Shown: positions 13,058-61,695 of the stretch, in pieces | Layout of the letters: every line of letters begins with the position of its first letter | How positions within the stretch are numbered: the stretch's first letter is position 1 | NCBI GenBank assembly: GCA_964595565.1 | Contig: CAZQQX010000001.1 | Coordinates: 8,074-72,073, forward strand | Source of the DNA: an uncultured Actinomycetota bacterium | GTDB lineage: Bacteria; Actinomycetota; Humimicrobiia; Humimicrobiales; Humimicrobiaceae | Length of the DNA stretch: 64,000 nucleotides | Direction: 5' to 3' | Translations under genes and position numbers: made by a program | Notes under the pieces: model-generated | Database searches by the model: none | Seen by the model: the letters and a program-made list of their open reading frames with translations, nothing else | Told to the model about the DNA's origin: nothing

Positions 13058-13942
13058 ATGATTGGTGCTAAAACAAGTGTGGTAGCTTTAATAGGGAACC
13101 CGGTGGGGCACAGCCACTCTCCGGCAATACAGAATTTTTTTATAAAAAAATATTCTATGGATGCTGTCTATCTTGCATTTGAATTTAGTGAAAAAAATTT
13201 AAAAAAAGCATTTAATGGTGCAGAGAAGCTGGGGTTTGCGGGCTTAAATGTAACCATGCCCTATAAGGAAAAAATATCGGGCATGGTTGATAAAAAAGAC
13301 AGTATAGCCCGGGTAACAAATTCGGTTAACACGGTAAAGTTTGATAAAAAAAAAGAAATTTCAAACGGCTTTAATACTGATGTGATGGGGTTTTTAAAAC
13401 CGCTGGATAAAAAGAATTTTAACTGGACAGAAAGCCGTTGCCTTGTGATAGGGGCAGGTGGTGCCGCAAGGAGTGTCATATATGGTATGGTGTTAAAGAA
13501 AGTAAAGAAAATATGGGTGCATAACAGAACAAAAGAAAAGGTAAGAAAAATAATAAAAGATTTTAAAACCCATCCTGATAATTTGATAGAGCCTCTTGAT
13601 AGCATTAATGAGCCGGGGGGGAAAGTTGATGACGCTGACTTAATTGTTAACTGCACGCCTATTGGAATGAATATAGAATCTTACCGGAATTTTATGCCGG
13701 TACCAGAAAAGTGTAATTTAAAAGATAAATTTATCTTTGATATGGTTTATGACCCTGTGGAAACGCTTTTAATAAAAAAAGCCATAAGGGAAGGGGCAGA
13801 GGTTATAAGTGGAATTGATTTATTGGTGAACCAGGCTGGGTTATCTTTTGAAATATGGTTCGGGATATTACCTGAAGATAACTGTATAGAGGATATAAAA
13901 AACAGGATTTTAATGGACATATCAAAAAAAAGATTAAAATAA
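13058..13942 (+). CDS. aroE: Shikimate dehydrogenase
   Basis: GNPVGHSHSP, GLNVTMPYK, SVNTV, NTDVMG, GAGGAARS, NCTPIGM and DMVYDP motifs. Confidence 0.95.
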   Translation: MIGAKTSVVALIGNPVGHSHSPAIQNFFIKKYSMDAVYLAFEFSEKNLKKAFNGAEKLGFAGLNVTMPYKEKISGMVDKKDSIARVTNSVNTVKFDKKKEISNGFNTDVMGFLKPLDKKNFNWTESRCLVIGAGGAARSVIYGMVLKKVKKIWVHNRTKEKVRKIIKDFKTHPDNLIEPLDSINEPGGKVDDADLIVNCTPIGMNIESYRNFMPVPEKCNLKDKFIFDMVYDPVETLLIKKAIREGAEVISGIDLLVNQAGLSFEIWFGILPEDNCIEDIKNRILMDISKKRLK

Positions 13943-14016
13943 TAAGATATTAACAAATTAAAAAAATAATATAAAATAAATAGAACACAATAAAAAGAAA
14001 AATAGATGGAGATAAG

Positions 14017-15075
14017 ATGAACATCAATGATATTTTACTTGAGGCCATAAATGTAAATGCATCGGATGTACATATTGTATGTGTCCTCCCCCCTATATTC
14101 AGGGTACATGGAAATCTGGTAAAGTTAGAAAAATTTGGAGATATTACTCCTGAACTGGCAGAAAAAATGTTAATCAGGATATTAAATGAAGAACAAATTA
14201 AAAGGTTAAGGGAAGGGCTGTCTGTTGATTTCTCTCATACTATATCGGGCTATGGGAGATTCAGATGCAGTTATTATTATCAGAGAAACACACTTGCAGC
14301 TGCTTTTAGATACATATCAAGAGTAATTCCATCTGTTGAAGAACTCGGTTTACCCCTTCAGATTAAAGAATTTGCAAAATATCCGCGGGGTCTCGTGCTG
14401 GTTACGGGCCCCACCGGTTGCGGTAAGTCAACGACACTTGCGTCCATAATTGAGATAATAAATCAAAACAGGTCTGAAAATATAATAACCGTTGAAGACC
14501 CTATAGAGTATCTGTTTACACATAAAAAAAGTATAATATCCCAGAGAGAAATATTGGCGGATGCTCATTCATTCGCAGATGCCCTTAAATATGTTTTGAG
14601 GGAAGACCCGGATGTTATAATGGTGGGAGAGATGAGGGACCTGGAGACAATATCAAGCACTCTTACTGCTGCAGAAACCGGGCACCTTGTTTTTTCTACC
14701 CTTCATACCCAGGACGCGCCCCAGACCATTGATAGGATAATAGATGTATTTCCAACTCATCAGCAAAGGCAGGTAAGGGCACAGCTTGCCGGAACTTTAA
14801 AGGCAGTACTGGTGCAACAGTTATTAACTACAAGAGAAGGTGATGGAAGGGTGCCTGCAACAGAGCTTATGTTCGTTAACGATGCCATAAAAAATATGAT
14901 AAGAGAAGTAAAGGTGCATCAGATTTATTCATCAATACAGGCGAGCGGCAGGAGGGGTATGATGACCATGGATATGTCGCTGGTGAACCTCTATAAGGCA
15001 GGAAAGATTTCAGAGGAAACGGCGCTGGAAAAGGCACACAGCGTAGAAGAGGTAAGAAGAATGATTAATGGCTGA
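14017..15075 (+). CDS. pilT: Type IV pilus retraction ATPase PilT
   Basis: Walker A GPTGCGKSTT, TVEDPIEY, LREDPDVIMVGEMRD, TGHLVFSTLHT and the PilT signature AIKNMIRE. It lacks the long N-terminal domains of PilB. Confidence 0.93.
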   Translation: MNINDILLEAINVNASDVHIVCVLPPIFRVHGNLVKLEKFGDITPELAEKMLIRILNEEQIKRLREGLSVDFSHTISGYGRFRCSYYYQRNTLAAAFRYISRVIPSVEELGLPLQIKEFAKYPRGLVLVTGPTGCGKSTTLASIIEIINQNRSENIITVEDPIEYLFTHKKSIISQREILADAHSFADALKYVLREDPDVIMVGEMRDLETISSTLTAAETGHLVFSTLHTQDAPQTIDRIIDVFPTHQQRQVRAQLAGTLKAVLVQQLLTTREGDGRVPATELMFVNDAIKNMIREVKVHQIYSSIQASGRRGMMTMDMSLVNLYKAGKISEETALEKAHSVEEVRRMING

Positions 15076-15110
15076 TTGTTTTTGAGAGTCAATAAAAGAG
15101 GGTTTTAATT

Positions 15111-16340
15111 ATGACAGTATACAATTATACGGTTAGGGATTTAAAAGGTGAGTCAATTAAGGGTTTTATAGATGCCGAAACACAGGATGTTGTTGAATCA
15201 AAGCTAAAGGACATGGGCTATTTTATAATCAATATTGATAAAGCAAAAGAAGAGAAAAAGCTCAAATTAAAAGGCTCTTCAGAAGGTTTTAGTTTTTTTA
15301 ATCGTATAAAAATAAGAGATATGGTTATTTTCACCAGGCAGTTTTCTACTCTTATTTCTTCGGGGATGTCCTTGCTTGAATCGCTTATTGTTCTTGAAAG
15401 GCAAACCGCGAATCTTAAGTTAAAAAAAATAATTTCAGAAATAAGGGTATACGTGGAATCGGGCCATTCACTATCAGAATCAATGGAAAACCACCCTAAA
15501 GTTTTTAGCAGGTTATATGTAAGTCTGATAAGGGCAGGCGAGGCGGGAGGCGTGCTTGATAGGACCATGAATGACCTGGCAAATTTCCTTGAAAGAGAAG
15601 AGGAATTGAGATTAACCATAAGAAATAAAACAGCTTATCCAAAATTTATTCTGGTTTTTGCTGCAATTATATCTATTGTGATGATAGTATTTCTGGTTCC
15701 TACTTTTGAAGGTATATATGAAGAGCTGGGAGCAGAGCTTCCGGGAATTACAAAAGCGGTTATGGCAGTAGGCGGGTTATTTAAAAATATATATTTTTAC
15801 CTTATTCTGGTAGTTGTTGTATTTGGTGGAAGATATTTATTTAAAAAATTCGTAAGTTCAAAAAAGGGAAGACACATAATGGATAGTGTAAAAATTAATT
15901 TGCCGAAATTTGGTGACCTCTTTAGAAAAATGTCGCTGGCAAGATTTGCGAGACATTTTGGGATATTGCTTGCCACCGGGGTTCCAATATTAAATTCACT
16001 GGAAATTGCCAAGGGAGTTGCGGACAATGTTATTATTGATGAAGCACTTGAAGAAATAAGGACCAGTATAAGAGAAGGGGAAAATATTTCTGATCCCATG
16101 TCAGGCATATCTATTTTCCCTGATATGATGGTACAGATGATAGGGGTGGGGGAAAGGACCGGTACGCTGGATAGCATTTCAAGTAAAATTGCGGATTTTT
16201 ATGATAACGAAGTGGCAAATACCATAGATATGCTGGTAACAGTGCTGGAACCCCTGATGCTTTTGTTTGTAGCGGGGTTTATAGGTATAATTGTAATATC
16301 AATGTATCTTCCGATGTTTAATATATACCAGGCAATGTAA
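15111..16340 (+). CDS. pilC: Type IV pilus platform protein PilC (GspF family)
   Basis: FTRQFSTLISSG, AGEAGG and GERTG...LEP motifs; two GspF repeats and three TM segments. Confidence 0.93.
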   Translation: MTVYNYTVRDLKGESIKGFIDAETQDVVESKLKDMGYFIINIDKAKEEKKLKLKGSSEGFSFFNRIKIRDMVIFTRQFSTLISSGMSLLESLIVLERQTANLKLKKIISEIRVYVESGHSLSESMENHPKVFSRLYVSLIRAGEAGGVLDRTMNDLANFLEREEELRLTIRNKTAYPKFILVFAAIISIVMIVFLVPTFEGIYEELGAELPGITKAVMAVGGLFKNIYFYLILVVVVFGGRYLFKKFVSSKKGRHIMDSVKINLPKFGDLFRKMSLARFARHFGILLATGVPILNSLEIAKGVADNVIIDEALEEIRTSIREGENISDPMSGISIFPDMMVQMIGVGERTGTLDSISSKIADFYDNEVANTIDMLVTVLEPLMLLFVAGFIGIIVISMYLPMFNIYQAM

Positions 16341-16383
16341 AATTAATAAAACATTTTTTTAATGGCATTATTCAGATTTAATC

Positions 16384-17193
16384 ATGGAAAAATTAAAATC
16401 AAAAAATTATGATACGGACAATATATTAAGGTTAAGAAATCTTACTGTGGAAGAATTAATAAAGATATATAAAAATACAGGCAGTTCTGAAATATTGAAT
16501 ATAATACTTGAAAAAACAAAGAAGCTTGCCTATAAGGTTGTTTCTGATTTTAAAATTAATTACTGTGATAGGAAAGACATAAGGCAGGTTGCGCTAACCG
16601 GTCTTGTAATAGCCATAAACAGGTTCAATACAGGTGTGGATACCAGGTTCTCCACTTTTGCCGTTAACTATATAAAAGGCGAAATACTTCACTTCATAAG
16701 AGATAACCGCCTGGTAAAAAGCCCACGGTGGTTGTGGAAGCTAAATAAAATATTCACCGAATATGTTAAAAAATATGAAAATCAAAATAATAGTTACCCT
16801 ACCATAGAGGAAATTTCAGAAGGAATAAATATACCGGTAGAAGGAGTAAATGAATTCTTAAAAGCCAGAGAGGCAGCCTTTTACAATAACAGGAAAATAA
16901 ATGATTGCGCCGGGGGTAACGGTAATAAAGCAGAAGATAATTTAAGTTATGATAGGAGCCTTATAAGGTCAAAGGAGTATAAAAGTTTTGACCTGGTAAT
17001 GGAAGATAAAATAATATTATGGGATGCCATAGACAGGCTGCATAAATTAAACAAAAAAATACTGGTTCTAAGTTATTTCCTGGGATTCAGCCAGGAGGAA
17101 ATAGGTAAGAAAATAGGAATTTCGCAGAAATCGGTTTCCAGAAAACTAAAAGAGAGTATAAAGCAGCTAAAAGAATACTTCGCGTGCAACTAA
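16384..17193 (+). CDS. Group 3 sigma factor, SigB/SigF/SigG-like
   Basis: Region 2: DIRQVALTGLVIAINRFN...RFSTFAVNYIKGEILHFIRD. Region 3: YPTIEEISEGINI. Region 4: SQEEIGKKIGISQKSVSR. Confidence 0.85.
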   Translation: MEKLKSKNYDTDNILRLRNLTVEELIKIYKNTGSSEILNIILEKTKKLAYKVVSDFKINYCDRKDIRQVALTGLVIAINRFNTGVDTRFSTFAVNYIKGEILHFIRDNRLVKSPRWLWKLNKIFTEYVKKYENQNNSYPTIEEISEGINIPVEGVNEFLKAREAAFYNNRKINDCAGGNGNKAEDNLSYDRSLIRSKEYKSFDLVMEDKIILWDAIDRLHKLNKKILVLSYFLGFSQEEIGKKIGISQKSVSRKLKESIKQLKEYFACN

Positions 17194-17249
17194 TTTTTTT
17201 GCCCCGAATTTAAAGATTTACCGGATACCCGATAAATATTTAATTATTA

Positions 17250-17278
17250 TTGACAAATATGTATGAAATAAATATTAT
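17250..17278 (+). promoter_or_regulatory. sigmaA-type promoter upstream of the major pilin
   Basis: TTGACA (17250-17255)-N17-TATTAT (17273-17278). Confidence 0.6.
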
Positions 17279-17385
17279 TGTATAATAAATAATTTTATAA
17301 TTTTATATTTTATTATATAATAATTAAATATAATTTTTAATTAATATATAATTTTCTATATTTAGGAATATAAATATAAATAAAT

Positions 17386-17410
17386 GTCTAAAAATTTTAT
17401 TTAAGGGTAT
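17386..17410 (+). promoter_or_regulatory. SigB-type promoter upstream of the major pilin
   Basis: GTCTAA (17386-17391)-N13-GGGTAT (17405-17410), one mismatch from the Bacillus SigB consensus GTTTAA-N12-14-GGGWAW, 55 nt before the pilin ATG. Confidence 0.55.
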
Positions 17411-17465
17411 AATAATATAATGAATAATAAAAAAATAATTTTCTATCAAATAAAGGAGGTAAGAA

Positions 17466-17876
17466 ATGAAGTGGTTATACAGGCATATGCATAAGGATGA
17501 GAAAGGATTCACACTTGTTGAACTTATGATAGTAATCATAATACTGGCAATCCTTACTGCAATTGCTGTACCGAGCTACATGGTATTAAGAAACAGGGCA
17601 AGGATAGCAGCAGCTCAGAGCGAATTAAAGAATATCGCCACTGCTCTGGAGATGCACTACGCGGATAAGGAAGCTTATCCGGCAACTACCTTTGCGGCAC
17701 TGGTGACAGCACTTGAAGGTGGTGCATATATGGATCCGGTACCTCCAACCGACCCATGGGATACTGGCTATGTATACACATTAGCTGCTGGTTCTTATAC
17801 CCTGGAAAGCTATGGACCGGATAAAGCGGACGCCGGTGATGACGATATAGAAATAATAGATGGGCAGCTGCAATAA
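17466..17876 (+). CDS. pilA: Major type IV pilin with GspG-like C-terminus
   Basis: Class III signal KDEKG/FTLVELMIV with Glu5; C-terminal DPWDTGYVY...SYGPDK..GDDDI as in the T2SS GspG family. Strong SD (GGAGGT), with its own promoter and terminator. Confidence 0.85.
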   Translation: MKWLYRHMHKDEKGFTLVELMIVIIILAILTAIAVPSYMVLRNRARIAAAQSELKNIATALEMHYADKEAYPATTFAALVTALEGGAYMDPVPPTDPWDTGYVYTLAAGSYTLESYGPDKADAGDDDIEIIDGQLQ

Positions 17877-17926
17877 TAGTGGCGATATAATACAAATTAT
17901 ATCGGAGTAAAAATAATATAAAAAAA

Positions 17927-17970
17927 TAAATTAAGAGGTAGTTATTAAGACTGCCTCTTAATTTATTTAA
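17927..17970 (+). terminator. Intrinsic terminator after the major pilin
   Basis: TAAATTAAGAGGTAG / CTGCCTCTTAATTTA stem followed by a T-rich tract. An A-tract upstream means it could be bidirectional. Confidence 0.8.
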
Positions 17971-17993
17971 ATTTCAGGTCAATATTTTAATTT

Positions 17994-18022
17994 TTGACTA
18001 AAGAAAAATACCATGTTATTAT
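17994..18022 (+). promoter_or_regulatory. sigmaA-type promoter for pilD-pilMNOP-aroCKB
   Basis: TTGACT-N17-TATTAT with an extended -10 TG at 18014-18015, just downstream of the pilin terminator. Confidence 0.6.
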
Positions 18023-18187
18023 TAAAAGATAAAAAAAATTATATAAATTTATATTATTAAAATATTAAAGTTATACAGGAAAAATAATTTTTTAAAATTA
18101 TTATTCAATTATAATAAATATAGCAATATAATAGAAAAAATATAAATTTACCGATTGTAAAAAAACTGTAATAAAGTAATAAGCAAA

Positions 18188-18949
18188 ATGGAAATATATA
18201 AAGTATTTTTATATATAATATTTATTACATGCGGCCTTACTGCAGGCAGCTTTCTTGGAGTTGTTGCATACAGGCTTCCCCGTAAAATATCTATAATAAA
18301 GCCGCGTTCATTTTGCCCCCATTGCAGAAAAGAGATTCCTTTTTATGATAATATTCCTGTAATTTCCTATATTATGCTCAGGGGAAGATGCAGGTTCTGT
18401 AAGAATAAGATACCGGTAAATACACTATTAATAGAATTAATAACCGCAATAGTATTTGTATTAAATTATATTTTTTTTGGTTTATCCGTAAAAACAATAA
18501 GCGGGATTATTCTATGCATCGTTCTGATAGTAATATCTTTTATTGACATTGAATTTCAAATAATACCAAATGCGATAATACTTCCATTTACCATTGTGGG
18601 GCTGGCATTAAGCGTTTTTTTAAATTTAGAAAGATGGTGGATGCCTCTTGCATTCGGTGCCGGGGCTTTTTTGTTTATGCTTATAATTCACCTTATAATT
18701 CCCCGGGGAATGGGAATGGGTGATGTCAAGTTAAGTCTTATGGCAGGAGTGTTTCTGGTAAGGGATGTGATACCGGCACTGTTTCTGGGGTTTCTGACAG
18801 GTGCATTGTATGGTGTATTGCTGGTTATCGCAAGAAAAAGGAAATTAAAACAGCTAGTAGCATTCGGGCCCTTTATTTCACTGGGAAGTATAATTGCTTT
18901 ATTTTGGGGTAATAATATTTTAAAATGGTATGTAAGTTTTTTAAAATAA
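18188..18949 (+). CDS. pilD: Prepilin peptidase / N-methyltransferase
   Basis: PRSFCPHC...GRCRFC zinc motifs, FIDIE and GMGMGDVKL catalytic Asp residues, and AFGPF. Confidence 0.95.
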   Translation: MEIYKVFLYIIFITCGLTAGSFLGVVAYRLPRKISIIKPRSFCPHCRKEIPFYDNIPVISYIMLRGRCRFCKNKIPVNTLLIELITAIVFVLNYIFFGLSVKTISGIILCIVLIVISFIDIEFQIIPNAIILPFTIVGLALSVFLNLERWWMPLAFGAGAFLFMLIIHLIIPRGMGMGDVKLSLMAGVFLVRDVIPALFLGFLTGALYGVLLVIARKRKLKQLVAFGPFISLGSIIALFWGNNILKWYVSFLK

Positions 18950-18956
18950 AAAGAGA

Positions 18957-20126
18957 GTGATTAAAATGCTGGCAGTAGGATTAAATTTAAGTTCATCAAG
19001 ATTAAGTATTGTTGAGCTTTTAAAATCAAGAAATGGCTTTACTATTGCGAATATGGCAAGAGAAGAGATACCACCGGACTGTATGGTCAAAGGGGAAGTT
19101 CAGGATGCACAAATTCTTTCAAACAGTTTAAAGGAAGTCTGGAGAAAAAATAAGATTTCTGACAGGAAAGTCTTCATCGGAATTGCAAACCAGAAAGTGA
19201 TTGCAAAAGAAATCCGGATACCGGTTATAAATGACGATGAAATAAAGAATTCCATACAATACCAGATCAGTGATTTTATTCCCATACCCAGGAATAATAT
19301 TTTATATGATTATTACGTGGTTGAAAAAGGAGAGGACCATTCAAGAATAATGCTGGTAGGGGCGATGAAGAGCATGATAAATGATGTGGTTTCAAGTTTT
19401 AAAAAGGCCGGTCTGCTCGCACAGGCTATTGATTTAAACTGCTTTGCATTATACAGGACGGTAAACTATATAAAAGGAATTGAAAAAGATAAAGATGTAA
19501 AGAACAAGCATACAGCTTTTTGTGTCGCGAACCTTGGAGTGGAAATTTCAATAATAGAGATGATACAGGACTATAACTTAAAATATCCGAGATTTACGTC
19601 TACTTCTATAGGAAGCTTTACTAATGAGATTTCAAAGGAAACAAAAAAAGATGATAAATATTGCGGGGAAGTATTATCAAAATTTGATTTCAAATCCCTG
19701 CTGTTAAAGAAAAACGAACCAGAAAAGAAGAAGAAAGAAACCGGAGATTCTTTCATTAAACCTGAAGAAAAAGAGAGTAAAAATTCCGGTAAAGATAAAG
19801 TTAAAGATGAGCCTGACAGCGATAAAGTGAAAGAAATAATAAAAAGCACCACGGATAGGTTTATAGGGGAAATTAAATTATCGGTGGAACACTTCTTACA
19901 GGAAAATCCCAAATCAAGTGTGGGGAAAATTATTTTAACCGGTGAATATATAAGAAATATTGATAAATATATAGAACAGGAAATAGAATATAAAGTTGAA
20001 ATGTTAAATATAAACGATTATTTTCCATTAAAAAATATTAAAATAGCTGCGGGTTATAGTGAAGACGGGGGTTACATGCTTGACCCGGTAGCTATAGGCA
20101 TGGCATTAAGGGGCTTAAATCAATGA
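18957..20126 (+). CDS. pilM: Type IV pilus assembly protein PilM
   Basis: Actin-like N-terminus (VGLNLSSSRLSIVE), IQYQISDFIPIP, IILTG and C-terminal VAIGMALRG; first gene of an M-N-O series. Confidence 0.85.
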   Translation: MIKMLAVGLNLSSSRLSIVELLKSRNGFTIANMAREEIPPDCMVKGEVQDAQILSNSLKEVWRKNKISDRKVFIGIANQKVIAKEIRIPVINDDEIKNSIQYQISDFIPIPRNNILYDYYVVEKGEDHSRIMLVGAMKSMINDVVSSFKKAGLLAQAIDLNCFALYRTVNYIKGIEKDKDVKNKHTAFCVANLGVEISIIEMIQDYNLKYPRFTSTSIGSFTNEISKETKKDDKYCGEVLSKFDFKSLLLKKNEPEKKKKETGDSFIKPEEKESKNSGKDKVKDEPDSDKVKEIIKSTTDRFIGEIKLSVEHFLQENPKSSVGKIILTGEYIRNIDKYIEQEIEYKVEMLNINDYFPLKNIKIAAGYSEDGGYMLDPVAIGMALRGLNQ

Positions 20127-20824
20127 AAACTATAAACCTCCTTCCAAAGGAAGAGAGAGTTAGAGATGTAAAAAGTATAATGCTTGGCGCGGTGATGGTA
20201 ATATTAATAATATTATTAATAGCAGCGGCCGGCTTTTCCTTTATAATTTACAACGTTAACCGCGGTCTAACACCGGAGCTGGAAAATTACGAAAGAGTAA
20301 ATATGCAGCTAAATAATTATATAAATAAATTACAGGCCTATACCAGTTTTAAAGAAGAAGTAAACAAGAAAGCTAAAGTTATAGAATATTTAAAGGCCAG
20401 GGAAATATTATGGTCGGACATACTTTATGATTTTGGAGAAAATATGCCGGAAAATGCTTATATTGATTATATGGAGGGTGACAGTGAGAGGTTTTATTCG
20501 TTAATTTCCAGCCTTGAAGAGGGTGAAGTTGAAGAGATAAATAAAGTATTATTATTTACAATTTCGGGAAATGCGCTTGATTACAAAGATGTTACGAGAT
20601 TACTGGTTTATTTAAGAAATATGGAAAATATAGGAGAAGTATGGATTAACAATATCAGTAAGGATTATGTAACAAGCTCCAATTTGGATGTATTATCTTT
20701 TAATATCAGCGCATATCTTGACATAGGGCCATATATAGAAGAACTGGGTCTGGATGAAGTTGAAAAAGAAGAGACCGGCGACGAAGAAATACTGGACCAG
20801 GAACTGGAGATGCTGAATCAGTAA
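20123..20824 (+). CDS. pilN: Type IV pilus assembly protein PilN
   Basis: N-terminal INLLP motif, a TM helix, a coiled coil and WSDIL. Confidence 0.85.
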   Translation: MKTINLLPKEERVRDVKSIMLGAVMVILIILLIAAAGFSFIIYNVNRGLTPELENYERVNMQLNNYINKLQAYTSFKEEVNKKAKVIEYLKAREILWSDILYDFGENMPENAYIDYMEGDSERFYSLISSLEEGEVEEINKVLLFTISGNALDYKDVTRLLVYLRNMENIGEVWINNISKDYVTSSNLDVLSFNISAYLDIGPYIEELGLDEVEKEETGDEEILDQELEMLNQ

Positions 20825-20860
20825 ATGTAGATAAATTAATAAATATTTTTTTATATTAAT

Positions 20861-21400
20861 ATGAATATTAAAATTAAAATAATTATAATAATAGCAATTT
20901 TTCTGGTGATTGTTTTACTTACGGTACTGGTTCTTGTTCCCAATCTGACTGCAAGTATTAAAAACAATGCTTCTATTGAAAGAGAAAAAGAAGAAAATAA
21001 AGCATTGATGGAGAATTTGAACAATCTTATTCTGGTAAGGGATGAATATCATTTAATGAATGCAGAATACCAGAAGTATTCATTACAACTCCCGACAGGC
21101 GGCGATAACAGTATTTTTACCAATGAGATTTATGATATTGCCAGTTACTCAGATGTGGATATTTACTCTATTAATTATTCAGAAAAAACTGTAAGTGAGG
21201 AAGAAGAAAAAATGGGCCTGGTTATAACTGAGGCCGATTTAATTATAGATGGTTCTTATTATGATATATTAAACTTCATAAACACGGTTGAAAAAATTCC
21301 GAGGATAGCAAAGGTCAATAAAATAATAATTCAATCTACGGGTAGCGAGTATGAATATTTGAGCGCCAATATAAGAATTGAATTGTATTATAAAAAATAA
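20861..21400 (+). CDS. pilO: Type IV pilus assembly protein PilO
   Basis: N-terminal TM, coiled coil, QLP and GSYYDILNFINTVEKIPRI motifs. Confidence 0.85.
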   Translation: MNIKIKIIIIIAIFLVIVLLTVLVLVPNLTASIKNNASIEREKEENKALMENLNNLILVRDEYHLMNAEYQKYSLQLPTGGDNSIFTNEIYDIASYSDVDIYSINYSEKTVSEEEEKMGLVITEADLIIDGSYYDILNFINTVEKIPRIAKVNKIIIQSTGSEYEYLSANIRIELYYKK

Positions 21401-21411
21401 ATTAAAAAAAT

Positions 21412-21951
21412 ATGATATTTAAAAAAAGTAAAAAAATAATTCCATCAAAGAGTTTTAACGTTAAGGATATTATAATTGCAGCCGGCTTTATAACGGTCTT
21501 TATTATTATGTCCATATCTGTTTATGGATGTTCTGTCATTAATCTCATGAGTAAAGACTATAGCGACGCAAAAGAGGAACCGGTTCTGCCAGAAGTTGAA
21601 ATAGATGAAAGCGAAGTTGAAGAAATTAAAAAGGGGGAAGAAGATATAAAGAAAGGCTATGTTATTGAAAGCGAAATCAAACTAATTGATGATTCAATAA
21701 GAGACCCATTTAAACCATTTTATATAGTAGAAGAAGAGGAAAAAGAAAATATTATTACACTGGAGAGAATCTTTAGCAAAGATGGGGTTGAATATGCCGA
21801 AATAAATTTTAATGAATATATTTATAATTTGAAAGAGTCTGATACTCTATCAGATGTTTATTTAATCAAGGCAATAAATATAAACTCGTTGGTATTATTA
21901 AAGGGAGACGAAATAATAACCCTGTATATCGGAATTCCGGTATACGACTGA
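21412..21951 (+). CDS. PilP-like putative lipoprotein
   Basis: Lipobox-like SVYGC after a hydrophobic stretch, acidic linker, RDPFKPF motif and beta-rich C-terminus. It sits immediately after pilO. Confidence 0.55.
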   Translation: MIFKKSKKIIPSKSFNVKDIIIAAGFITVFIIMSISVYGCSVINLMSKDYSDAKEEPVLPEVEIDESEVEEIKKGEEDIKKGYVIESEIKLIDDSIRDPFKPFYIVEEEEKENIITLERIFSKDGVEYAEINFNEYIYNLKESDTLSDVYLIKAININSLVLLKGDEIITLYIGIPVYD

Positions 21952-21967
21952 AAAAGGTGTTTAAAAT

Positions 21968-23143
21968 TTGAGATTTCTAACAGCCGGTGAGTCTCACGGA
22001 AAATATCTTACAGGAATTATAGATGAATATCCTTCAGGTGTTGAAATTGATGTAGATTTATTAAACAGAGAGCTTCACAGAAGACAGAGCGGTTTTGGAA
22101 GAGGCGGAAGGATGTCCATAGAAGATGACACCATAGAGATAATTTCCGGAGTAAGGAAAGGTAAAACTACTGGTTCCCCGGTATCTTTTATTATAGCAAA
22201 CAGGGACTGGGATAACTGGAAAGAGATAATGGATACAGGTCCACGGGGTAAAGAAAGGGACAGGGGTGGAGATAAATTATTGAATCCCAGGCCGGGACAT
22301 GCAGATTTAAATGGTTATATAAAATACAGGCTTGATGATATAAGAGATGTAATAGAGAGAAGCAGTGCAAGAGAGACAGCGGCAAGAGTGGCCGTGGGTT
22401 GTTTTGCCAGGATAATCTTAAAATTGCTTGGAATAAGTATATTCAGTTATGTATATCAGATAGGAAATATTGTATTGGGGAACAGAGTAAAAGAAGGAAG
22501 AATAAATGAGAGCACGCTAAAAGAAATTGAATCATCAGAAGTCAGGTGCCCCGATAAAGAAATTAGTTTAAAAATGAAGGAAGAAATAACCAGAGTAATC
22601 AAAAATGGCGACAGCATTGGAGGAAAATTCAGGGTCATTGCCACAGGGATACCTCCGGGTCTTGGCTCATATGAGCAATGGGATAAAAGGATTGACTCAA
22701 GGATAGCGGGTTTGTTTATGAGCATACCTGCAGTAAAAGCTATTGAAATCGGGGACGGGTTTATGGCACCATATATAACCGGGATTAATTTCCATGATAA
22801 AATTTACTATAAAAAAGGTACCGGTTTTTATAGAAAAACAAACAGAGCCGGAGGGATAGAGGGAGGAATAACAAACGGGGAATCGGTTGTTATAGGGGTA
22901 AGTATGAAGCCGGTACCCACCACATCTAAAGGTCCTGGCACGGTTAATATAAAAACAAAAAAAGCCTCAGCAAGCCTTAAAGAAAGGTCGGATGTCTGTG
23001 TGGTTCCGGCTGCTTCAGTGATTGGCGAATCAATGTTATCCATAGTGATTTTAAATGAAATACAGGAAAAGTTTGGTAAGGATAATATAGATGAAATTTT
23101 AGAAAATTATAAAAACTATAAAAAATATATTGGAAAAATTTAA
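21968..23143 (+). CDS. aroC: Chorismate synthase
   Basis: TAGESHG, PRPGHAD, ERSSARETAARVA, GGIEGGITNG and MKPVPT motifs. Confidence 0.97.
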   Translation: MRFLTAGESHGKYLTGIIDEYPSGVEIDVDLLNRELHRRQSGFGRGGRMSIEDDTIEIISGVRKGKTTGSPVSFIIANRDWDNWKEIMDTGPRGKERDRGGDKLLNPRPGHADLNGYIKYRLDDIRDVIERSSARETAARVAVGCFARIILKLLGISIFSYVYQIGNIVLGNRVKEGRINESTLKEIESSEVRCPDKEISLKMKEEITRVIKNGDSIGGKFRVIATGIPPGLGSYEQWDKRIDSRIAGLFMSIPAVKAIEIGDGFMAPYITGINFHDKIYYKKGTGFYRKTNRAGGIEGGITNGESVVIGVSMKPVPTTSKGPGTVNIKTKKASASLKERSDVCVVPAASVIGESMLSIVILNEIQEKFGKDNIDEILENYKNYKKYIGKI

Positions 23144-23149
23144 CATGAT

Positions 23150-23662
23150 ATGGATTACAAGAACATATCTCTTATAGGTTTTATGGGTTCCGGTAAAACT
23201 ACGCTGGGAAGAATACTGGCAGCGGAAAAAAATTTTTTGTTTATTGACCTGGATAGAATAATTGAGTTAGAGGAAAATAAAAGAATAAAAGATATATTTA
23301 AAATATATGGAGAGGATTATTTCAGAAATTTAGAGTCAGAAGTAATAAAAAAAATATATATAAACAAAAATTGCATTTTTGCCTGTGGGGGCGGAGTTGT
23401 AAACAGAAGCAAAAATATGGGAATAATAAGGAGGAACAGCCTGGTAATTTATTTAAGCGTTTCTCCTGAAAATGTTTTTAAGCGTTTAAAAAATACAGGA
23501 GATAGACCTCTTATTGAAGTAGAAAACAGGGAAGAGGCTATAAGAAATCTGGCCGGTAAAAGAGATAAGCTTTACAGAAAATATGCAGATATAATTATAA
23601 ATAATGACCGGGATGAACCTGCCGGGGCTTCGGGGCGAATATTAAACCTGCTTAACTCCTGA
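23150..23662 (+). CDS. aroK: Shikimate kinase
   Basis: GFMGSGKTT, FRNLE, CGGGVV and RPL motifs. Confidence 0.95.
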   Translation: MDYKNISLIGFMGSGKTTLGRILAAEKNFLFIDLDRIIELEENKRIKDIFKIYGEDYFRNLESEVIKKIYINKNCIFACGGGVVNRSKNMGIIRRNSLVIYLSVSPENVFKRLKNTGDRPLIEVENREEAIRNLAGKRDKLYRKYADIIINNDRDEPAGASGRILNLLNS

Positions 23663-23700
23663 GTAACCTTAAAATAAATATGTGGATAACCAAAAAGTAA

Positions 23701-24810
23701 ATGAAAATAGTTAAAGTTAAAACAATTTTAAAAAAGTACCCTGTATATACAGACACTGTTTTTAAAGATTTTTTACCGGAACTGATAAAAAAAAGGTTTG
23801 AAGATTGCGAAAAAATCCTCCTTGTAACCAACGATAAAATATATGGAATTTATAAAAAAACCATAAAAGATTCTCTCGGAGGATGCGGGCTTCCGAGTGA
23901 GATTGCAATAATAAGGGATGGCGAAGAATTTAAAAGCCAGGAAAGTGTTGATTACCTGTATGGAAGCCTTATCGACTTTAATGTACACAGAAATGATGTT
24001 GTCGTTTCATTTGGAGGAGGAGTAATAGGTGATATAGCGGGATTTGCAGCTGCTACATTTCACAGGGGAATTAAGTTTATCCAGTGCCCCACAACTATAA
24101 TAGGGCAGGTTGACAGTAGCATAGGCGGAAAAGTGGGTGTTAATTATAGTAATATAAAAAATATAATCGGAAGTTTCTATCAACCTGATGCAGTTGTTAT
24201 TGACCCGGAATTCATATATACACTTGATGAAGACCAGATAATAAACGGGCTGGGTGAAATAGTAAAATACGGGATAGTATTTGATAAAGAAATACTGGAA
24301 AAACTGGAAGGAAATGTATGCAGTGATGATAGAGATAGATTATTTAAACTTGTTAAGAAAAAAGTATTCAGGGATATTATATACAGGTGCTGTTATATAA
24401 AAGCAAAGGTAATTGAGAAAGATGAATTTGATACCGGCTACAGAAATTTATTAAATTTTGGGCATACAATAGGTCACAGTATAGAAAATGTCTTCAATCT
24501 TAAAGATATAAACCATGGTAAGGCTGTTAGTATCGGAATGATAATAGCAATGGATATATCAATTTCACTTGGTCTGTTAAAAAAAGAATTTAAAGACAGA
24601 ATAATAGAATTGTATAAAAAGCTAAAACTACCCTTCAGATTGCCGGAGATAAATCTGGCTAAAATTATTGATGTAATAAAATATGATAAGAAATTTAAGT
24701 CTTCCAAGAATAAATTTGTTCTTCTTAAAGGTCTAAACAAACCTGTTTTCTATTATAACCTCAGTAAGGGTACAATTGTTGATAATATAAAAAAAAGTAT
24801 GTATAATTAA
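23701..24810 (+). CDS. aroB: 3-dehydroquinate synthase
   Basis: GGGVIGD, PTTIIGQVDSSIGGKVGVN, LNFGHTIGHSIE and HGKAV motifs. Confidence 0.95.
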   Translation: MKIVKVKTILKKYPVYTDTVFKDFLPELIKKRFEDCEKILLVTNDKIYGIYKKTIKDSLGGCGLPSEIAIIRDGEEFKSQESVDYLYGSLIDFNVHRNDVVVSFGGGVIGDIAGFAAATFHRGIKFIQCPTTIIGQVDSSIGGKVGVNYSNIKNIIGSFYQPDAVVIDPEFIYTLDEDQIINGLGEIVKYGIVFDKEILEKLEGNVCSDDRDRLFKLVKKKVFRDIIYRCCYIKAKVIEKDEFDTGYRNLLNFGHTIGHSIENVFNLKDINHGKAVSIGMIIAMDISISLGLLKKEFKDRIIELYKKLKLPFRLPEINLAKIIDVIKYDKKFKSSKNKFVLLKGLNKPVFYYNLSKGTIVDNIKKSMYN

Positions 24811-24930
24811 ATAGAAATATATATAAGGAATATATCAAATATATTATTAATAGTTGAGCAGAGACTGAATTTTATACTAATTTTATTAATATACCGGGTT
24901 TGTAAATTTTTATTATAGGAAAAAGAAAAA

Positions 24931-25362
24931 ATGAAAAGAATTATTATAATTAACGGACCTAATTTAAATTTGCTGGGTGAAAGAGAAGAAGAAATATATG
25001 GAGAAAAAAGTTTCAATGATGTAGAAAGAGAGCTTGACGAAGTTGTAAAAGGAAAAGCAGAACTCCTGTATTTCCAGTCCAATCATGAAGGAGAGATTAT
25101 AGATAAAATTCATGAGTGTATGGGTAGTATAGACTGTATTATTATAAACCCCGGAGCATTAACCCACTATAGCTATGGTATTTATGATGCCATAGTGGCG
25201 AGTAAAATCAGAACCATAGAAGTGCATATATCAAATATATTCAGAAGAGAAGATTGGAGAGGAAAGTCTGTTGTATCTCCTGCTGCATCGGGTATTATAA
25301 TCGGGCTGGGTATGGATGTATACAGAATAGCGGTTGAATATATAATTAATTATAATGATTGA
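24931..25362 (+). CDS. aroQ: Type II 3-dehydroquinate dehydratase
   Basis: NGPNLNLLGERE..IYG, QSNHEG, NPGALTHYS and EVHISN motifs. Confidence 0.95.
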   Translation: MKRIIIINGPNLNLLGEREEEIYGEKSFNDVERELDEVVKGKAELLYFQSNHEGEIIDKIHECMGSIDCIIINPGALTHYSYGIYDAIVASKIRTIEVHISNIFRREDWRGKSVVSPAASGIIIGLGMDVYRIAVEYIINYND

Positions 25363-25374
25363 TAAAAAAGTAAA

Positions 25375-26697
25375 ATGTTAAGCAGATATTTAAAGGTTAT
25401 TAAAAAATATATAAATAAGGAATTAAATTTAAAACAGGAAGATGGCTTTAGCCTTGTGGAGGTGATAGTAGCTTTTTTTATAATGTCTATTATAACTGTC
25501 GTGCTGGTAAGGGGAACTATGATCGCGGTTGATACTATAAAAGTAAATAAAGCAAAAACTAAAGCTTTAGCGGTTGCCAGTGAAAAAATGGAGCTCATAA
25601 GGGCAATGGATTATGAAGGCATTGAGCTTACATCCGTAAATCCTGACTGGGGTGAGGATAACCCTGCGCTTATTGAAGATGGTTATGGTATAAGCTATGA
25701 AGTCAGTGAAGTTTATGTAAGTGGAAGTAGCTATAAGCAGATAAAGTTATCTATCTCAAAAGATCCGATGAATACAGCGATAAATGTAATTACACAGATT
25801 TATCCCCTGGCAGGGGGCGGGGAAGGAACAAACCCGGGCGACACTACACCGCCTGAGGCACCGACCGGGCTGGTAGCTACAGCAACCGGCTCATACAGTA
25901 TAGACCTTGACTGGGATGACAACACAGAGCCAGACCTGGCAGGATATAAAGTATACAGGGATACTGTAAGCGGATTTACACCCGATGGCGGTAATTTTGT
26001 AGCAGATGCGACTTCAAGTTTGTATTCTGATACTGGACTAACTGCCACAACAACGTATTATTACAGAGTAACAGCAGTGGATAACAGCAGTAATGAGTCA
26101 GACCCATCTATTCAGGCAGACGCTACGACATTATCAGGAAGTGACACTACACCGCCTGAGGCACCGACCGGGCTGGTAGCTACAGCAACCGGCTCATACA
26201 GTATAGACCTTGACTGGGATGACAACACAGAGCCAGACCTGGCAGGATATAAAGTATACAGGGATACTGTAAGCGGATTTACACCCGATGGCGGTAATTT
26301 TGTAGCAGATGCGACTTCAAGTTTGTATTCTGATACTGGACTAACTGCCACAACAACGTATTATTACAGAGTAACAGCAGTGGATAACAGCAGTAATGAG
26401 TCAGACCCATCTATTCAGGCAGACGCTACGACATTATTAGAATATACTTATATAAGTTTACCGTTTGAGCATGATGGGGCAGGAGAATATTATTGGAAAT
26501 CAGACGGGTTTTCAACTGACCCGGGGGATTGGGCAAGCTATGTGAACTCATGGAGCCTAGACATTCTTGAGATTAACGGGGTAAATTATACCAATAAGTG
26601 GAAGGCACAACATGATATACCGCCAGAAAGTGACGGTTACTGGTATATTTATTATAAAGCAAGTTCTAAGAATGGTCATATAGAAATTGGTCCATAG
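25375..26697 (+). CDS. Minor pilin (PilV/GspI-like) with two Fn3 domains and a C-terminal CBM64-like module
   Basis: Class III signal QEDG/FSLVEVIV; PilV-like helix KAKTKALAVASEKMELIR; two DTTPPEAPTGL...WDDNTEPDLAGYKVYR...YYYRVTAVD Fn3 repeats; C-terminal LPFEHDGAGEYYWK...DW..YVNSW...DGYWYI module. Confidence 0.8.
   Translation: MLSRYLKVIKKYINKELNLKQEDGFSLVEVIVAFFIMSIITVVLVRGTMIAVDTIKVNKAKTKALAVASEKMELIRAMDYEGIELTSVNPDWGEDNPALIEDGYGISYEVSEVYVSGSSYKQIKLSISKDPMNTAINVITQIYPLAGGGEGTNPGDTTPPEAPTGLVATATGSYSIDLDWDDNTEPDLAGYKVYRDTVSGFTPDGGNFVADATSSLYSDTGLTATTTYYYRVTAVDNSSNESDPSIQADATTLSGSDTTPPEAPTGLVATATGSYSIDLDWDDNTEPDLAGYKVYRDTVSGFTPDGGNFVADATSSLYSDTGLTATTTYYYRVTAVDNSSNESDPSIQADATTLLEYTYISLPFEHDGAGEYYWKSDGFSTDPGDWASYVNSWSLDILEINGVNYTNKWKAQHDIPPESDGYWYIYYKASSKNGHIEIGP
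25840..26437 (+). repeat. Perfect tandem duplication, 2 x 295 bp (period 303 bp = 101 codons)
   Basis: 25840-26134 and 26143-26437 read identical base for base by eye; each encodes one Fn3 domain. Confidence 0.9.
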
Positions 26698-26806
26698 GGT
26701 AATGGTATTTAAATTAATTTATATAAGAATTATTTTTGGAGTTTGGGTAAATGAAAGAAGTTATAATTATATAAATAGTTTAATAAAAATATAAGAGATA
26801 AACTAA

Positions 26807-27388
26807 ATGATTAAGTTACGAGGAAAAATTTTTAAAAAGATAACAGATAATAAGGGTTTTACAATGATTGAGATGCTTCTGGTAGTTCTTCTTATTGTCG
26901 TTATTGTAAGCATGGTTTCGGCTACATATCTCCTATCGGGAAATACATCAAGAGATATTGTTGATATAACCACTTCAATGATAGACTCAAGGGTTGTTAT
27001 ATACAGATTGACCAAAGACTTAAGGGAATCATCTGATATAACTCAGGCATATGCAGACAGTATAATTTTTACAAGCAACGTTGATGATGATGGGGATGAT
27101 GAGGTAGTAAATTACTATTTAACAGCTGTAGGTAGTTATTATGAACTTTACAGGAAAATAGATACAGAGCCTGCTAAATTTGTAGCCACCAATATAATTG
27201 ATAATAACCTATTTACTTATTATACAGATATAGGAACTCCAGAAGGAGGAGTTGTCACTCCTGTTAGTGCAGAAGAGTTAGGAAATATAAAATTAATTGG
27301 AATTGAACTGAAAATTGACCAGAGCGGAGGAGATACCCAGAGAAAAATGGAACTTGAAACTGTTGTTTCTCTGAGAAATAGAATATAA
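26807..27388 (+). CDS. Minor pilin (PilW/GspJ-like)
   Basis: Class III signal DNKG/FTMIEMLLVV with Glu5; RLTKDLRES helix; C-terminal TVVSLRN. Confidence 0.8.
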   Translation: MIKLRGKIFKKITDNKGFTMIEMLLVVLLIVVIVSMVSATYLLSGNTSRDIVDITTSMIDSRVVIYRLTKDLRESSDITQAYADSIIFTSNVDDDGDDEVVNYYLTAVGSYYELYRKIDTEPAKFVATNIIDNNLFTYYTDIGTPEGGVVTPVSAEELGNIKLIGIELKIDQSGGDTQRKMELETVVSLRNRI

Positions 27389-27414
27389 ATTATTTTTTAT
27401 ATAATATTTTTAAA

Positions 27415-29040
27415 GTGATTAAAATGATAAAAGTAATATTAAATTTAAAAAAAGAAAAAAGAGGCAATATAACCATACTTATTTTAATAATGGGTTTTGC
27501 AGTAATATTGCTGACCACTGCTATGGTTGGATATATTTTTCGTGACATTAACTATGTTGAACTTGACAGGAAAAAATTAAGGGCACTAAATATCGCAGAG
27601 GCAGGCATATCAAACATGTTTTTGAATATTGAAAAACATTATACCGAAGAAGATGTTACTTTACCCTCAAGTCCCTATACCGGAGAAATAATTGATAATG
27701 GTAATTCAGAGGGAACTTTTACTGTTGAATATGACTCACAGTCTGATGGGGACTTGACTATATACAATGTTACTTCTACAGGTGTTGACAAAGATGGTAT
27801 GGAAAGAATGGTAAGAGTAAAAATAAATGTTTTAAATCCAGGTCCCGCTCTTGACATTTATGACTATGTATATACAGCGACATCAGCTACTACCAGCGGG
27901 GACTTCAAGACTGTAGATGGGCCTTTTTATACTGATGGAGATCTAAATATTACCGCAGGTTCCGGTATATCCCAGGACCAGAGCGAAGGGCCAATAATTG
28001 TAAAAGGTGACTTATATATAAGTGGAGATGCAGTTAGTGTAAAGCAGGAATTTCTATCAGTAGGTGGAAATGTGGTAATGGGAGGCAGCGGAAAGATACT
28101 GGGTGGCCAGGTTAACATAGCAGGCAGCCTTACCATGTCCGGAGGGACTTATATAGACGAGGGGCTGGTAAGCCCGATGATTGTAATGGGTGATATTGAT
28201 ATGAGCAGCGGCAGCCCCCGTATAGGAGAATCGGGGGAAGACCTTATTCTATCATGTAACGGGACAATAAACCCCTGGCCTCCAAATTCATGGGCCCCGA
28301 TATACGCCACCAGGGATGACAGTCTGACATATACATTTGTTGACCCTCAGTATGATGTTAGTAGTCTTATTGATGAATACTATTCTGAAGTTCAGGACTC
28401 TGCAGATCCTATTAATGGAAATCTTACACTGAGTGATGAAAACGTACCTTATAACTATGAAGATACATATGGAAACAGTCTCAGTTTTGAGAAAGAGGGA
28501 GATGACTATGTACTGGAAATTAATGGAAATATAATTGTAGATGGTAATTTACAGATTGGAATTGAAGAGTGGTGGATTCCTGAATTAAGCGGTCCCAGCA
28601 CCAATGAAATATATTACAGGGGTAAAGGAATTATATATACCACCGGAAATATCAAGACAGTTACCACGCTCTGGCCCGACCCCCTGGAAGATTTTCCTGA
28701 AAGTACTCTCCTGGTGCTGGTATCAAATGGGACTATTGAATCATATGTATGGAGAGAATATGATTATATTGTCGCAAGTAATATTAATGACCAGCCCCCG
28801 CTTATGTATATGGTAGGGATTGCAAAAGGCAATATAAAAATAGCGGGAGGGGGAGGAAATGCAGCCATTGTAAAGGGTACGTTGATTACTGGTGGCCTTC
28901 TTGATGCTGATTATTATAATGCCAAAATTTATTACCAGCAGGGAATTAAAGATAGTTTACCTCCCGAGCTTCCCAGCAGTGATCCGGGTGGAGGGGAAAT
29001 AGTCATTACCAGAGCAGAATGGCAGGAAGCAATTAATTAA
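27415..29040 (+). CDS. Minor pilin (PilX/GspK-like) with glycine-rich beta-solenoid-like region
   Basis: KKEKRG/NITILILIMG (no Glu5, as in PilX/GspK); ALNIAEAGI PilX-N motif; VTSTG; repeated xxxxGDLxIxG units; C-terminal WQE. Confidence 0.75.
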   Translation: MIKMIKVILNLKKEKRGNITILILIMGFAVILLTTAMVGYIFRDINYVELDRKKLRALNIAEAGISNMFLNIEKHYTEEDVTLPSSPYTGEIIDNGNSEGTFTVEYDSQSDGDLTIYNVTSTGVDKDGMERMVRVKINVLNPGPALDIYDYVYTATSATTSGDFKTVDGPFYTDGDLNITAGSGISQDQSEGPIIVKGDLYISGDAVSVKQEFLSVGGNVVMGGSGKILGGQVNIAGSLTMSGGTYIDEGLVSPMIVMGDIDMSSGSPRIGESGEDLILSCNGTINPWPPNSWAPIYATRDDSLTYTFVDPQYDVSSLIDEYYSEVQDSADPINGNLTLSDENVPYNYEDTYGNSLSFEKEGDDYVLEINGNIIVDGNLQIGIEEWWIPELSGPSTNEIYYRGKGIIYTTGNIKTVTTLWPDPLEDFPESTLLVLVSNGTIESYVWREYDYIVASNINDQPPLMYMVGIAKGNIKIAGGGGNAAIVKGTLITGGLLDADYYNAKIYYQQGIKDSLPPELPSSDPGGGEIVITRAEWQEAIN

Positions 29041-54496: not shown

Positions 54497-54498
54497 AA

Positions 54499-61617: not shown

Positions 61618-61695
61618 CGGGACGTGGCGCAGTTTGGCTAGCGCACCAGTATGGGGTACTGGGGGTCGGAGGTTCAAATCCTCTCGTCCCGACCA
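61618..61695 (+). tRNA. tRNA-Pro(GGG)
   Basis: Acceptor CGGGACG/CGTCCCG, D arm GCGC/GCGC, anticodon stem CCAGT/ACTGG with loop ATGGGGT, T arm GGAGG-TTCAAAT-CCTCT and encoded CCA. Confidence 0.97.

Follow-up and report, generated by a model that had tools for sequence, protein, structure and literature searches.

The 64 kb stretch of contig CAZQQX010000001.1 analysed here, referred to as the window throughout, comes from an uncultured bacterium of the Actinomycetota and carries a set of type IVa pilus (T4aP) genes distributed among genes of the shikimate pathway. Gene calls from an open reading frame (ORF) listing, combined with Pfam and NCBIfam scans, give the order aroE-pilT-pilC-sigma-pilA-pilD-pilMNO-lipoprotein-aroCKBQ-three minor pilins-pepP-efp-nusB, all on the + strand like nearly all other genes of this 33% G+C window (Table 1). 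The family map thus bears out a preliminary description, made from the sequence letters, according to which T4a-like pilus genes are woven among aroE, aroCKBQ, pepP, efp and nusB. Of the T4aP components, the locus has PilT, PilC, PilD, PilM-PilN-PilO, and major and minor pilins; PilB is absent from it. Gaps between genes are mostly 4-45 bp, the exceptions being gaps of 272 and 311 bp on either side of pilA.

Conservation of the locus within its class

A PilM profile scan with one genome per species returned 37 loci, all from the Humimicrobiia-type group. In tblastn searches with the window proteins, all loci of sufficient length, from about 30 species-level metagenome-assembled genomes (MAGs), had an identical gene order (PilM 44-95% identical), and three deeper lineages (PilT 65%, PilM ~33% identity) had the same order minus the sigma gene. 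PilT, at 65-97% identity within the class, is the best-conserved pil gene. Mean identities of the Pil proteins and of the flanking housekeeping proteins co-diverge across these loci (Spearman 0.87, n=29), and a PilC search of 1.8 billion representatives found one cluster at 55% identity, then none above 41%. With PilC at or below 41% identity outside the clade and with Pil and housekeeping proteins diverging together, nothing in the comparisons points to a recent acquisition from a different phylum, a possibility that the preliminary description had raised against its own account. The nearest named relatives of PilM and PilT are from MAGs of the Actinomycetota, including Ca. Humimicrobiaceae and Ca. 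Hydromicrobium, which agrees with the earlier placement in a poorly known lineage of that phylum. One PilT 81% identical to that of the window is labelled 'Candidatus Atribacteria bacterium RBG_16_35_8' and one PilM is labelled Chloroflexi; since the labels are otherwise uniformly Actinomycetota, these contigs are probably mis-binned.

Housekeeping genes flank the locus on both sides, with relA, hisS, aspS, alaS, ruvX, mltG and genes for an O-methyltransferase, a U32 peptidase and an acylphosphatase upstream, and ispA, tlyA, nadK, recN, pyrG, a nudix gene and xerD downstream. The interleaved cluster does not hold all shikimate genes, as tyrA and aroA lie 24 kb 3' of the aro block. A 6S RNA and a tRNA are the sole Rfam matches across the window. 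When called from its first TTG, the O-methyltransferase ORF runs 50 bp into mltG; the database call for this protein is 215 aa with a later start, and the mechanical start is therefore probably wrong.

Table 1. Coordinates of the locus, its regulatory elements and other window features (window numbering).
Feature	Position	Strand	Basis and remarks
aroE, shikimate dehydrogenase	13058-13942	+	Pfam Shikimate_dh_N, Shikimate_DH; left anchor
PilT-type retraction ATPase, 352 aa	14017-15075	+	TIGR01420 (pilT_fam), 446 bits, cut-off 319
PilC platform protein	15111-16340	+	Pfam T2SSF twice, 208 bits
Sigma-70 family protein, group 3, SigB/F/G-like, 269 aa	16384-17193	+	Sigma70 regions 2, 3 (weak) and 4
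SigB/F-type promoter, GTCTAA-N13-GGGTAT	17386-17410	+	Upstream of pilA; conserved in 21-locus alignment
pilA, major pilin, 136-aa prepilin (mature 122 aa)	17466-17876	+	N_methyl, T2SSG
Terminator hairpin after pilA, 20-bp stem and U-rich tail	17924-17975	+	RNA fold -24.5 kcal/mol, z = -8.7
Sigma-70-like promoter, TTGACT-17-TATTAT, TG-extended	17994-18022	+	Before pilD
PilD, prepilin peptidase/N-methyltransferase	18188-18949	+	A24_N_bact (108 bits), Peptidase_A24; both above cut-offs
PilM	18957-20126	+	PilM_2, 113 bits; TIGR01175, 134, cut-off 133
PilN	20123-20824	+	Weak: E 0.0023, 18 bits, cut-off 22.8
PilO	20861-21400	+	PilO, 43 bits, above cut-off
179-aa lipoprotein, candidate PilP analogue	21412-21951	+	No family match
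aroC	21968-23143	+	Pfam Chorismate_synt
aroK	23150-23662	+	Pfam SKI
aroB	23701-24810	+	Pfam DHQ_synthase
aroQ	24931-25362	+	Pfam DHquinase_II
Modular PilV/GspI-like minor pilin, 440 aa	25375-26697	+	N_methyl, fn3 twice, CBM64 (101 bits)
Perfect 303-bp tandem duplication of one fn3 module	25840-26437	+	Tandem Repeats Finder, 2.0 copies, 100% match
PilW/GspJ-like minor pilin, 193 aa	26807-27388	+	N_methyl; conserved in 17 loci
PilX/GspK-like large minor pilin, 541 aa	27415-29040	+	Prepilin-like hydrophobic N-terminus; DUF7305 weak
pepP	29083-30201	+	Pfam Peptidase_M24; right anchor begins
efp	30296-30856	+	Pfam EFP domains; right anchor
nusB	30849-31307	+	Pfam NusB; right anchor ends
6S RNA	6349-6534	+	Rfam RF00013, 97 bits; between aspS and alaS
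mltG	9726-10751		
O-methyltransferase ORF, from first TTG	10702-11370		
Lit homologue	37449-38177	+	Lipoprotein intramolecular transacylase
822-aa protein	44059-46527	+	LVIVD repeats, PKD, transglutaminase core
864-aa protein	49523-52117	+	7TM-GAF-GGDEF-HD-GYP
tyrA and aroA	53375-55785	+	Prephenate dehydrogenase, EPSP synthase
tRNA	61618-61692		Rfam

Alignment proteins and the pilA cassette

The motifs of PilD (CxxC...CxxC and GMGDVK) are readable in the translated sequence, and the best NCBIfam match of the window PilC is the Thermus-type PilC model. The database version of PilM has 386 aa, with a start 3 codons shorter than the GTG start. Though its profile match is weak, PilN has a fitting size, a fitting position and one N-terminal transmembrane segment. 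Some relatives (L009, 9992-11155; L011; L029, 9992-11137) have an additional, orphan paralogue of PilM far from any pil gene, with 46-66% identity to that of the window; in L009 its neighbours are a radical-SAM/UPF0004 gene on one side and rhodanese, sortase, ligA and gatAB genes on the other.

Directly 3' of pilO, in 31 loci, lies the gene for the 179-aa lipoprotein. An alignment of 24 sequences of this family displays an invariant Cys40 within an [IV]SGC lipobox, together with an acidic linker, a motif R[DN]PFxPF whose PF.P is invariant, and a C-terminal domain that is small and β-rich. The protein recalls PilP in this architecture, and we retain it as a candidate analogue only; the label "PilP-like" that it had been given is supported by no family model. 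None of the 24 family members had a Pfam PilP match, a PDB profile search with the lipoprotein returned no sequence match, and hhalign against the PilP proteins of P. aeruginosa and N. meningitidis gave a probability of 11% over 44 columns. A single-sequence AlphaFold model of the protein was poor (predicted local distance difference test score 42). Relevant to this lipoprotein is a homologue of Lit encoded further downstream, which fits a monoderm envelope with modified lipoproteins.

The pilA product carries the prepilin leader MKWLYRHMHKDEKG/FTLVE (ending ...DEKG/FTLVE, with the slash at the processing site), giving cleavage after Gly14, Phe at +1 and Glu at +5, and the Shine-Dalgarno sequence of the gene, AAAGGAGG, is conserved in the alignment of its relatives. 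In most relative loci a G+C-rich hairpin lies 3' of pilA, usually followed by a T-rich tail; the sequences of these hairpins differ. The element TTTTGACTA recurs 3' of the pilA terminator in many relatives. From this layout, pilA looks like a separately switched and separately terminated cassette within a housekeeping operon. Control of pilA by a cyclic di-GMP (c-di-GMP) riboswitch, as in C. difficile, was ruled out, as Rfam returned no riboswitch or RNA element in the locus. A candidate for c-di-GMP turnover, the 864-aa 7TM-GAF-GGDEF-HD-GYP protein, is encoded 20 kb downstream, and in Rubrobacter xylanophilus a GGDEF-EAL gene adjoins the pilin gene. The major pilin diverges much faster than the machinery: in the closest relative, L005, the pilin (8503-8892) is 69% identical to that of the window, against 88-97% for its neighbours.

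The motif GTCTAA-N13-GGGTAT occurs once across the 64 kb window. In the alignment of 21 loci 5' of pilA it corresponds to a conserved TGTCTAAA-N-GGGTATAAT, which ends ~55 nt before the start codon. The promoter consensus of B. subtilis SigB and M. tuberculosis SigF is GTTTaa-N12-15-GGGTAT. A strict version of the pattern has one copy per relative locus, always 5' of pilA, and none in the loci that lack the sigma gene. This gene is present in 17 relative loci and absent from L018, L025 and L042-L044. The GGGTAT element is retained in 18 of 19 aligned sigma-bearing loci, while all five sigma-less loci have sigma-70-like elements instead: GTTTGA...AAGTATAAT replaces the motif in L018 and L025, which belong to the clade, and plain TTGACA/TTGAT-N17-TAnAAT promoters precede pilA in the three deeper lineages. 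Because L018 and L025 are probably sisters, the independent events are few. Such co-variation between motif and gene is the pattern expected if the sigma factor reads the pilA promoter, and the proposal that this factor is part of the pilus system gains support from the cognate-looking promoter.

A similar pairing is found in R. xylanophilus (AP019791, L046), where pilB-pilT-pilC-sigma-four minor pilins-pilin lie at another site. The sigma factor encoded next to pilC in that species is 27% identical to that of the window (E 2e-34), and the two share an LV[KR]xPRW stretch that is lacking from an ordinary SigB-like sigma factor. In the 21-kb, 69% G+C locus of R. xylanophilus, GTCTAG-N13-GGGCAT occurs once, 87 nt before the pilin gene. 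With both sigma gene and motif present there, the sigma-pilin module looks older than Humimicrobiia. We had considered the sigma gene a recent insertion, given the three deeper lineages without it, and dropped this idea in view of the pilC-adjacent sigma gene and promoter of R. xylanophilus; for the sigma-less lineages, loss now looks as likely as gain.

Minor pilins and the missing assembly ATPase

The first of the three minor pilin genes starts 12 bp past aroQ. Prepilin signals are readable in the 440-aa (...QEDG/FSLVE) and 193-aa (...DNKG/FTMIE) proteins, whereas the 541-aa protein has the N-terminus KRG/NITILILIMG, without Glu5, as in GspK/PilX-type subunits; its Gly17 and Asn18 are nearly invariant in the alignment. 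The names pilV, pilW and pilX used in the preliminary description have no family model behind them, and what remains in their favour is that R. xylanophilus has I/J/K-like minor pilins to which the three proteins are weakly similar in the same order. The trio matches, weakly and in order, the last three of the four minor pilins of that species: the 440-aa N-terminus resembles a 141-aa minor pilin, the 193-aa protein shows a weak, full-length match to a 190-aa minor pilin (E 4e-5), and the N-terminal 80 aa of the 541-aa protein match a 487-aa protein (E 0.007). These ordered weak matches point to an I/J/K-like (PilV/W/X-like) set. GspIJK subunits form a filament tip complex, and by analogy the minor pilin trio would form the tip of the filament. 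In one relative, L023 (17805-20822), the PilX/GspK-like pilin is enlarged to 1005 aa, compared with ~530 aa elsewhere, and the ORF rule used returned no first minor pilin in this locus.

The 440-aa protein owes its length to C-terminal modules. Its CBM64 match (PF18666, 101 bits against a cut-off of 25) spans residues 357-438, and CBM64 is described in published work as a type A cellulose-binding module. Across 20 relatives, the first minor pilin ranges from 239 to 515 aa and has N_methyl in 20/20, fn3 in 13/20 and CBM64 in 4/20. CBM64 is a genus-level module and not a feature of the pilus system; the predicted carbohydrate-binding module behind the tip proposed earlier is present in the subunit encoded in the window and does not extend to most relatives. 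A conspecific contig, L002 (12972-13991), has a one-copy, 339-aa version of the duplicated fn3 region, and three others (L001, L003 and L004) break inside the gene, which indicates copy-number variation or assembly collapse. The module region has 40-59% G+C against a background of 33%. Judged by its sequence, the first minor pilin belongs with the rapidly changing modular pilins described in a review of monoderm pili, and the system does not depend on it as a constant component. The 822-aa protein encoded elsewhere in the window is a probable surface protein that combines LVIVD repeats with a PKD domain and a transglutaminase core.

The pilins also bear on whether the locus encodes mainly a DNA-uptake (competence) pilus or a protein-export pseudopilus, and not a pilus for adhesion or motility. 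The major pilin is short (122 aa when mature), has its best matches to GspG/T2SSG and weak ones to ComGC and ComP_DUS, and PilT-dependent T4aP import DNA in several phyla (PMC6668835). However, comEA, comEC and dprA were not seen among the window genes scanned, a full PilMNO set together with PilT is typical of T4aP, and an adhesin-type modular minor pilin with fn3 domains, joined in this genus by CBM64, argues for substrate binding. We consider it quite unlikely that competence or export is the main role of the system.

The ATPase of the locus has the Walker A motif GPTGCGKST and the PilT-type motif AIKNMIRE, and it fails the PilB model TIGR02538 (148 bits against a cut-off of 676). It stands alone, as there is no second T2SSE gene anywhere in the 64 kb window, and the aroE-pilT spacing of 74 bp leaves no room for pilB between these genes. 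Nor was pilB found in ~33 related loci, searched with flanks reaching as far as 10 kb to either side of the pilM, pilT or pilC match, so that 21-64 kb were inspected per genome. The preliminary description listed no PilB in its gene run, made no remark on the absence and suggested that this may be an intact ancestral T4aP locus; the term "intact" has to be given up, with pilB missing from all ~33 related loci and present between aroE and pilT in Rubrobacteria.

One explanation is that the class has lost its assembly ATPase altogether, and that a PilT-family ATPase or an unrelated motor drives both extension and retraction, much as one bifunctional ATPase serves the Tad pilus of Caulobacter. 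It would account for the absence of pilB from loci whose PilT proteins span 65-97% identity when Rubrobacteria have the gene at exactly the aroE-pilT position, and it is in keeping with the high conservation of PilT and with literature in which the functions of PilB and PilT overlap and retraction can be independent of PilT (PMC6668835). Yet the window ATPase is a canonical PilT by both model score and motifs. In other genomes, such as those of Pseudomonas and Thermus, pilB often lies away from pilT or pilMNO, the search covered 21-64 kb of each genome, and we know of no PilT shown to assemble pili. We therefore regard a pilus without PilB as unlikely.

The position of pilB in Rubrobacteria was read from the contexts of matches to PilC of the cultured Rubrobacter radiotolerans, a more distant representative that we used as query. 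A Rubrobacter-like MAG (L048, PilC 50% identical to that of R. radiotolerans) has the order sigma-alaS-ruvX-mltG-aroE-pilB-pilT-pilC, L050 has alaS-ruvX-mltG-pilT-pilC, and in R. radiotolerans itself (L045) alaS-ruvX-mltG is followed by a lone pilC. A pil position adjacent to aroE/mltG is thus common to two classes, which suggests that the chromosomal linkage is old. From these gene orders, the place of pilB in Rubrobacteria is between aroE and pilT, and relic states occur. The contexts look like the stepwise decay of a pilus locus, and the series from pilB-pilT-pilC through pilT-pilC to a lone pilC fits the suggestion in the preliminary description of an ancestral aro-linked locus that later left relics. 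The run rpe-ribD-ribE-ribBA-ribH-rpmB-fakA-degV-recG lies 3' of the pilC remnant in L045, L049 and L050, and the other strand of L049 bears a fragmented pilB.

Stepwise decay at this position in Rubrobacteria, taken together with the missing pilB, could mean that the window locus is itself a decaying, functionless remnant, retained solely through its embedding in essential operons. The state of the genes speaks otherwise. In the window, none of the 13 pil-related reading frames is disrupted, and in every relative locus that is long enough all pil-related genes were detected in the same order, save for the sigma gene, gone in five. Conservation extends to the prepilin and ATPase motifs, the lipobox, promoter and terminator, and the modular pilin goes on changing, as its new modules and a duplication show. 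A functionless remnant is therefore very improbable.

Instead, we think it probable that the locus encodes a vertically inherited, functional T4a-like pilus system of a monoderm actinobacterial class, located at an ancient site inside a housekeeping cluster. The tight packing of the machinery genes (pilT, pilC and sigma; pilD, pilMNO and the lipoprotein gene; the minor pilin genes) with the aro genes makes co-transcription and basal expression of the two sets probable. The sigma factor encoded just upstream would then read the SigB/F-type promoter of pilA and, because the pilA cassette has its own promoter and terminator, filament production would be switched by sigma activity. The I/J/K-like minor pilins would build a tip complex, from which, in this genus, the fn3 spacers and CBM64 of the I-like subunit may anchor the cell on crystalline cellulose or particles of a similar kind; retraction of the tethering pilus would fall to PilT. 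PilB, presumably lost from the locus, would most likely be encoded elsewhere in the genome.

Several points weigh against a functional monoderm pilus of this kind. By the canonical model, and going by its gene content, the locus alone cannot assemble a filament. That the class is monoderm is an assumption based on the phylum to which it belongs and on a locus without a secretin gene. The sigma factor scores 136 bits on TIGR02980 (SigB/F/G), which is its best-matching family, although the cut-off is 234; on the SigF-named NCBIfam model NF005644, among its stronger matches, it scores 120 bits against a cut-off of 261. Partner-switching regulators (an anti-sigma kinase or anti-anti-sigma factor) were absent from the locus and window genes scanned with Pfam, and with no linked anti-sigma factor or other sensor the switch is unspecified. 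Finally, the module that suggests cellulose as a substrate, CBM64, is confined to the four relatives mentioned above.

A lack of PilB from the genomes as a whole could make this otherwise ordinary system surprising in its mechanism, and pilus assembly without a linked PilB is the central question that the locus raises. In the most far-reaching version, the whole class would build a retractile pilus without PilB, with a PilT-family protein as its sole bidirectional motor, and filament production would be under the control of an ancient sigma factor dedicated to pili throughout the phylum; encoded 3' of pilC, this factor would recognise a GTCTA-N13-GGGYAT promoter at the pilin gene. We consider this combination unlikely. 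Whatever its motor, the locus is a clean case, seen across the class, of pilus genes that have become fixed within an essential operon for biosynthesis, and it offers a way to read the lone pil genes of other actinobacteria as relics. The sigma-promoter pair for the major pilin, shared with the cultured R. xylanophilus, makes regulation testable in a cultivable organism, and the exchange of fn3 and CBM modules in a minor pilin hints at a way in which uncultured actinobacteria of sediments might attach to particulate polysaccharide.

Comparison with known systems

In Actinobacteria, Tad-type pili alone have been studied (PMC6916266), although T4aP have already been predicted in the phylum (PMC6668835). 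The locus resembles the monoderm T4aP clusters of Streptococcus sanguinis, Clostridium perfringens and C. difficile (PMC6916266) in holding PilT, PilC, PilD, PilM, PilN and PilO in one cluster with one major pilin, three or four minor pilins and no secretin. A further shared trait is the presence of large modular minor pilins whose C-termini bear adhesion domains, and such adhesive subunits are known from S. sanguinis (PMC6916266). Unlike these clusters, the locus lacks PilB/PilF, includes a sigma factor, is divided in two by aroCKBQ and embedded in housekeeping genes, has an extra conserved lipoprotein after PilO and belongs to a different phylum.

Linkage between alignment genes and shikimate genes is itself known from proteobacteria, where pilMNOPQ is followed by aroK-aroB (PMC7545093). 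Here, pilMNO and the lipoprotein gene are followed by aroC-aroK-aroB. In contrast to the proteobacterial arrangement, the secretin PilQ is lacking, aroE, aroC and aroQ are also included, and pilT, pilC, pilA, pilD and the minor pilins lie in the same run. The locus ties that linkage to the actinobacterial backbone alaS-ruvX-mltG-aroE...aroCKBQ-pepP-efp-nusB and points to a very old arrangement. The literature yielded no useful description of pilus-shikimate synteny in Gram-positive bacteria, nor of a prepilin peptidase gene beside aroE, and the survey of Imam (2011) is silent on aro genes, on efp and on a sigma factor.

For the control of the major pilin, the precedent is SigF of Synechocystis, a group 3 sigma factor that specifically recognises the pilA1 promoter (PMC2532724). 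Both promoters have a G-rich -12 element (GGTAA there, GGGTAT in the putative promoter here), whereas the -35 elements differ (TAGGC there, GTCTAA here). The sigma gene of the window lies inside the pilus locus, after pilC, unlike that of Synechocystis, and, unlike the autoregulating SigF, it has no copy of the motif before it. Within the same phylum, R. xylanophilus has the same pilT-pilC-sigma order, I/J/K-like minor pilins in the same order and the shared GTCTA[AG]-N13-GGG[TC]AT before the pilin gene. It differs in having PilB and a fourth, GspH-like minor pilin, in that its cluster is not beside aro genes, with pilD separate and pilMNO not adjacent, and in that no fn3 or CBM modules are recorded. 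As for substrate binding, two papers on Ruminococcus (PMC3244431, citing R. albus; PMC3672088) implicate T4P proteins in cellulose binding by anaerobic fibre degraders; there, the binding is ascribed to the pilin itself, whereas here a recognisable CBM64, a predicted cellulose binder, is fused to a minor pilin.

In conclusion, each element of the locus has a precedent, among them the known pilMNOPQ-aroK-aroB linkage and the earlier prediction of T4aP in Actinobacteria. What is new is this combination and its class-wide fixation inside the shikimate operon, together with the class-wide absence of pilB from the locus and a locus-encoded sigma factor whose matching promoter is shared with Rubrobacter.

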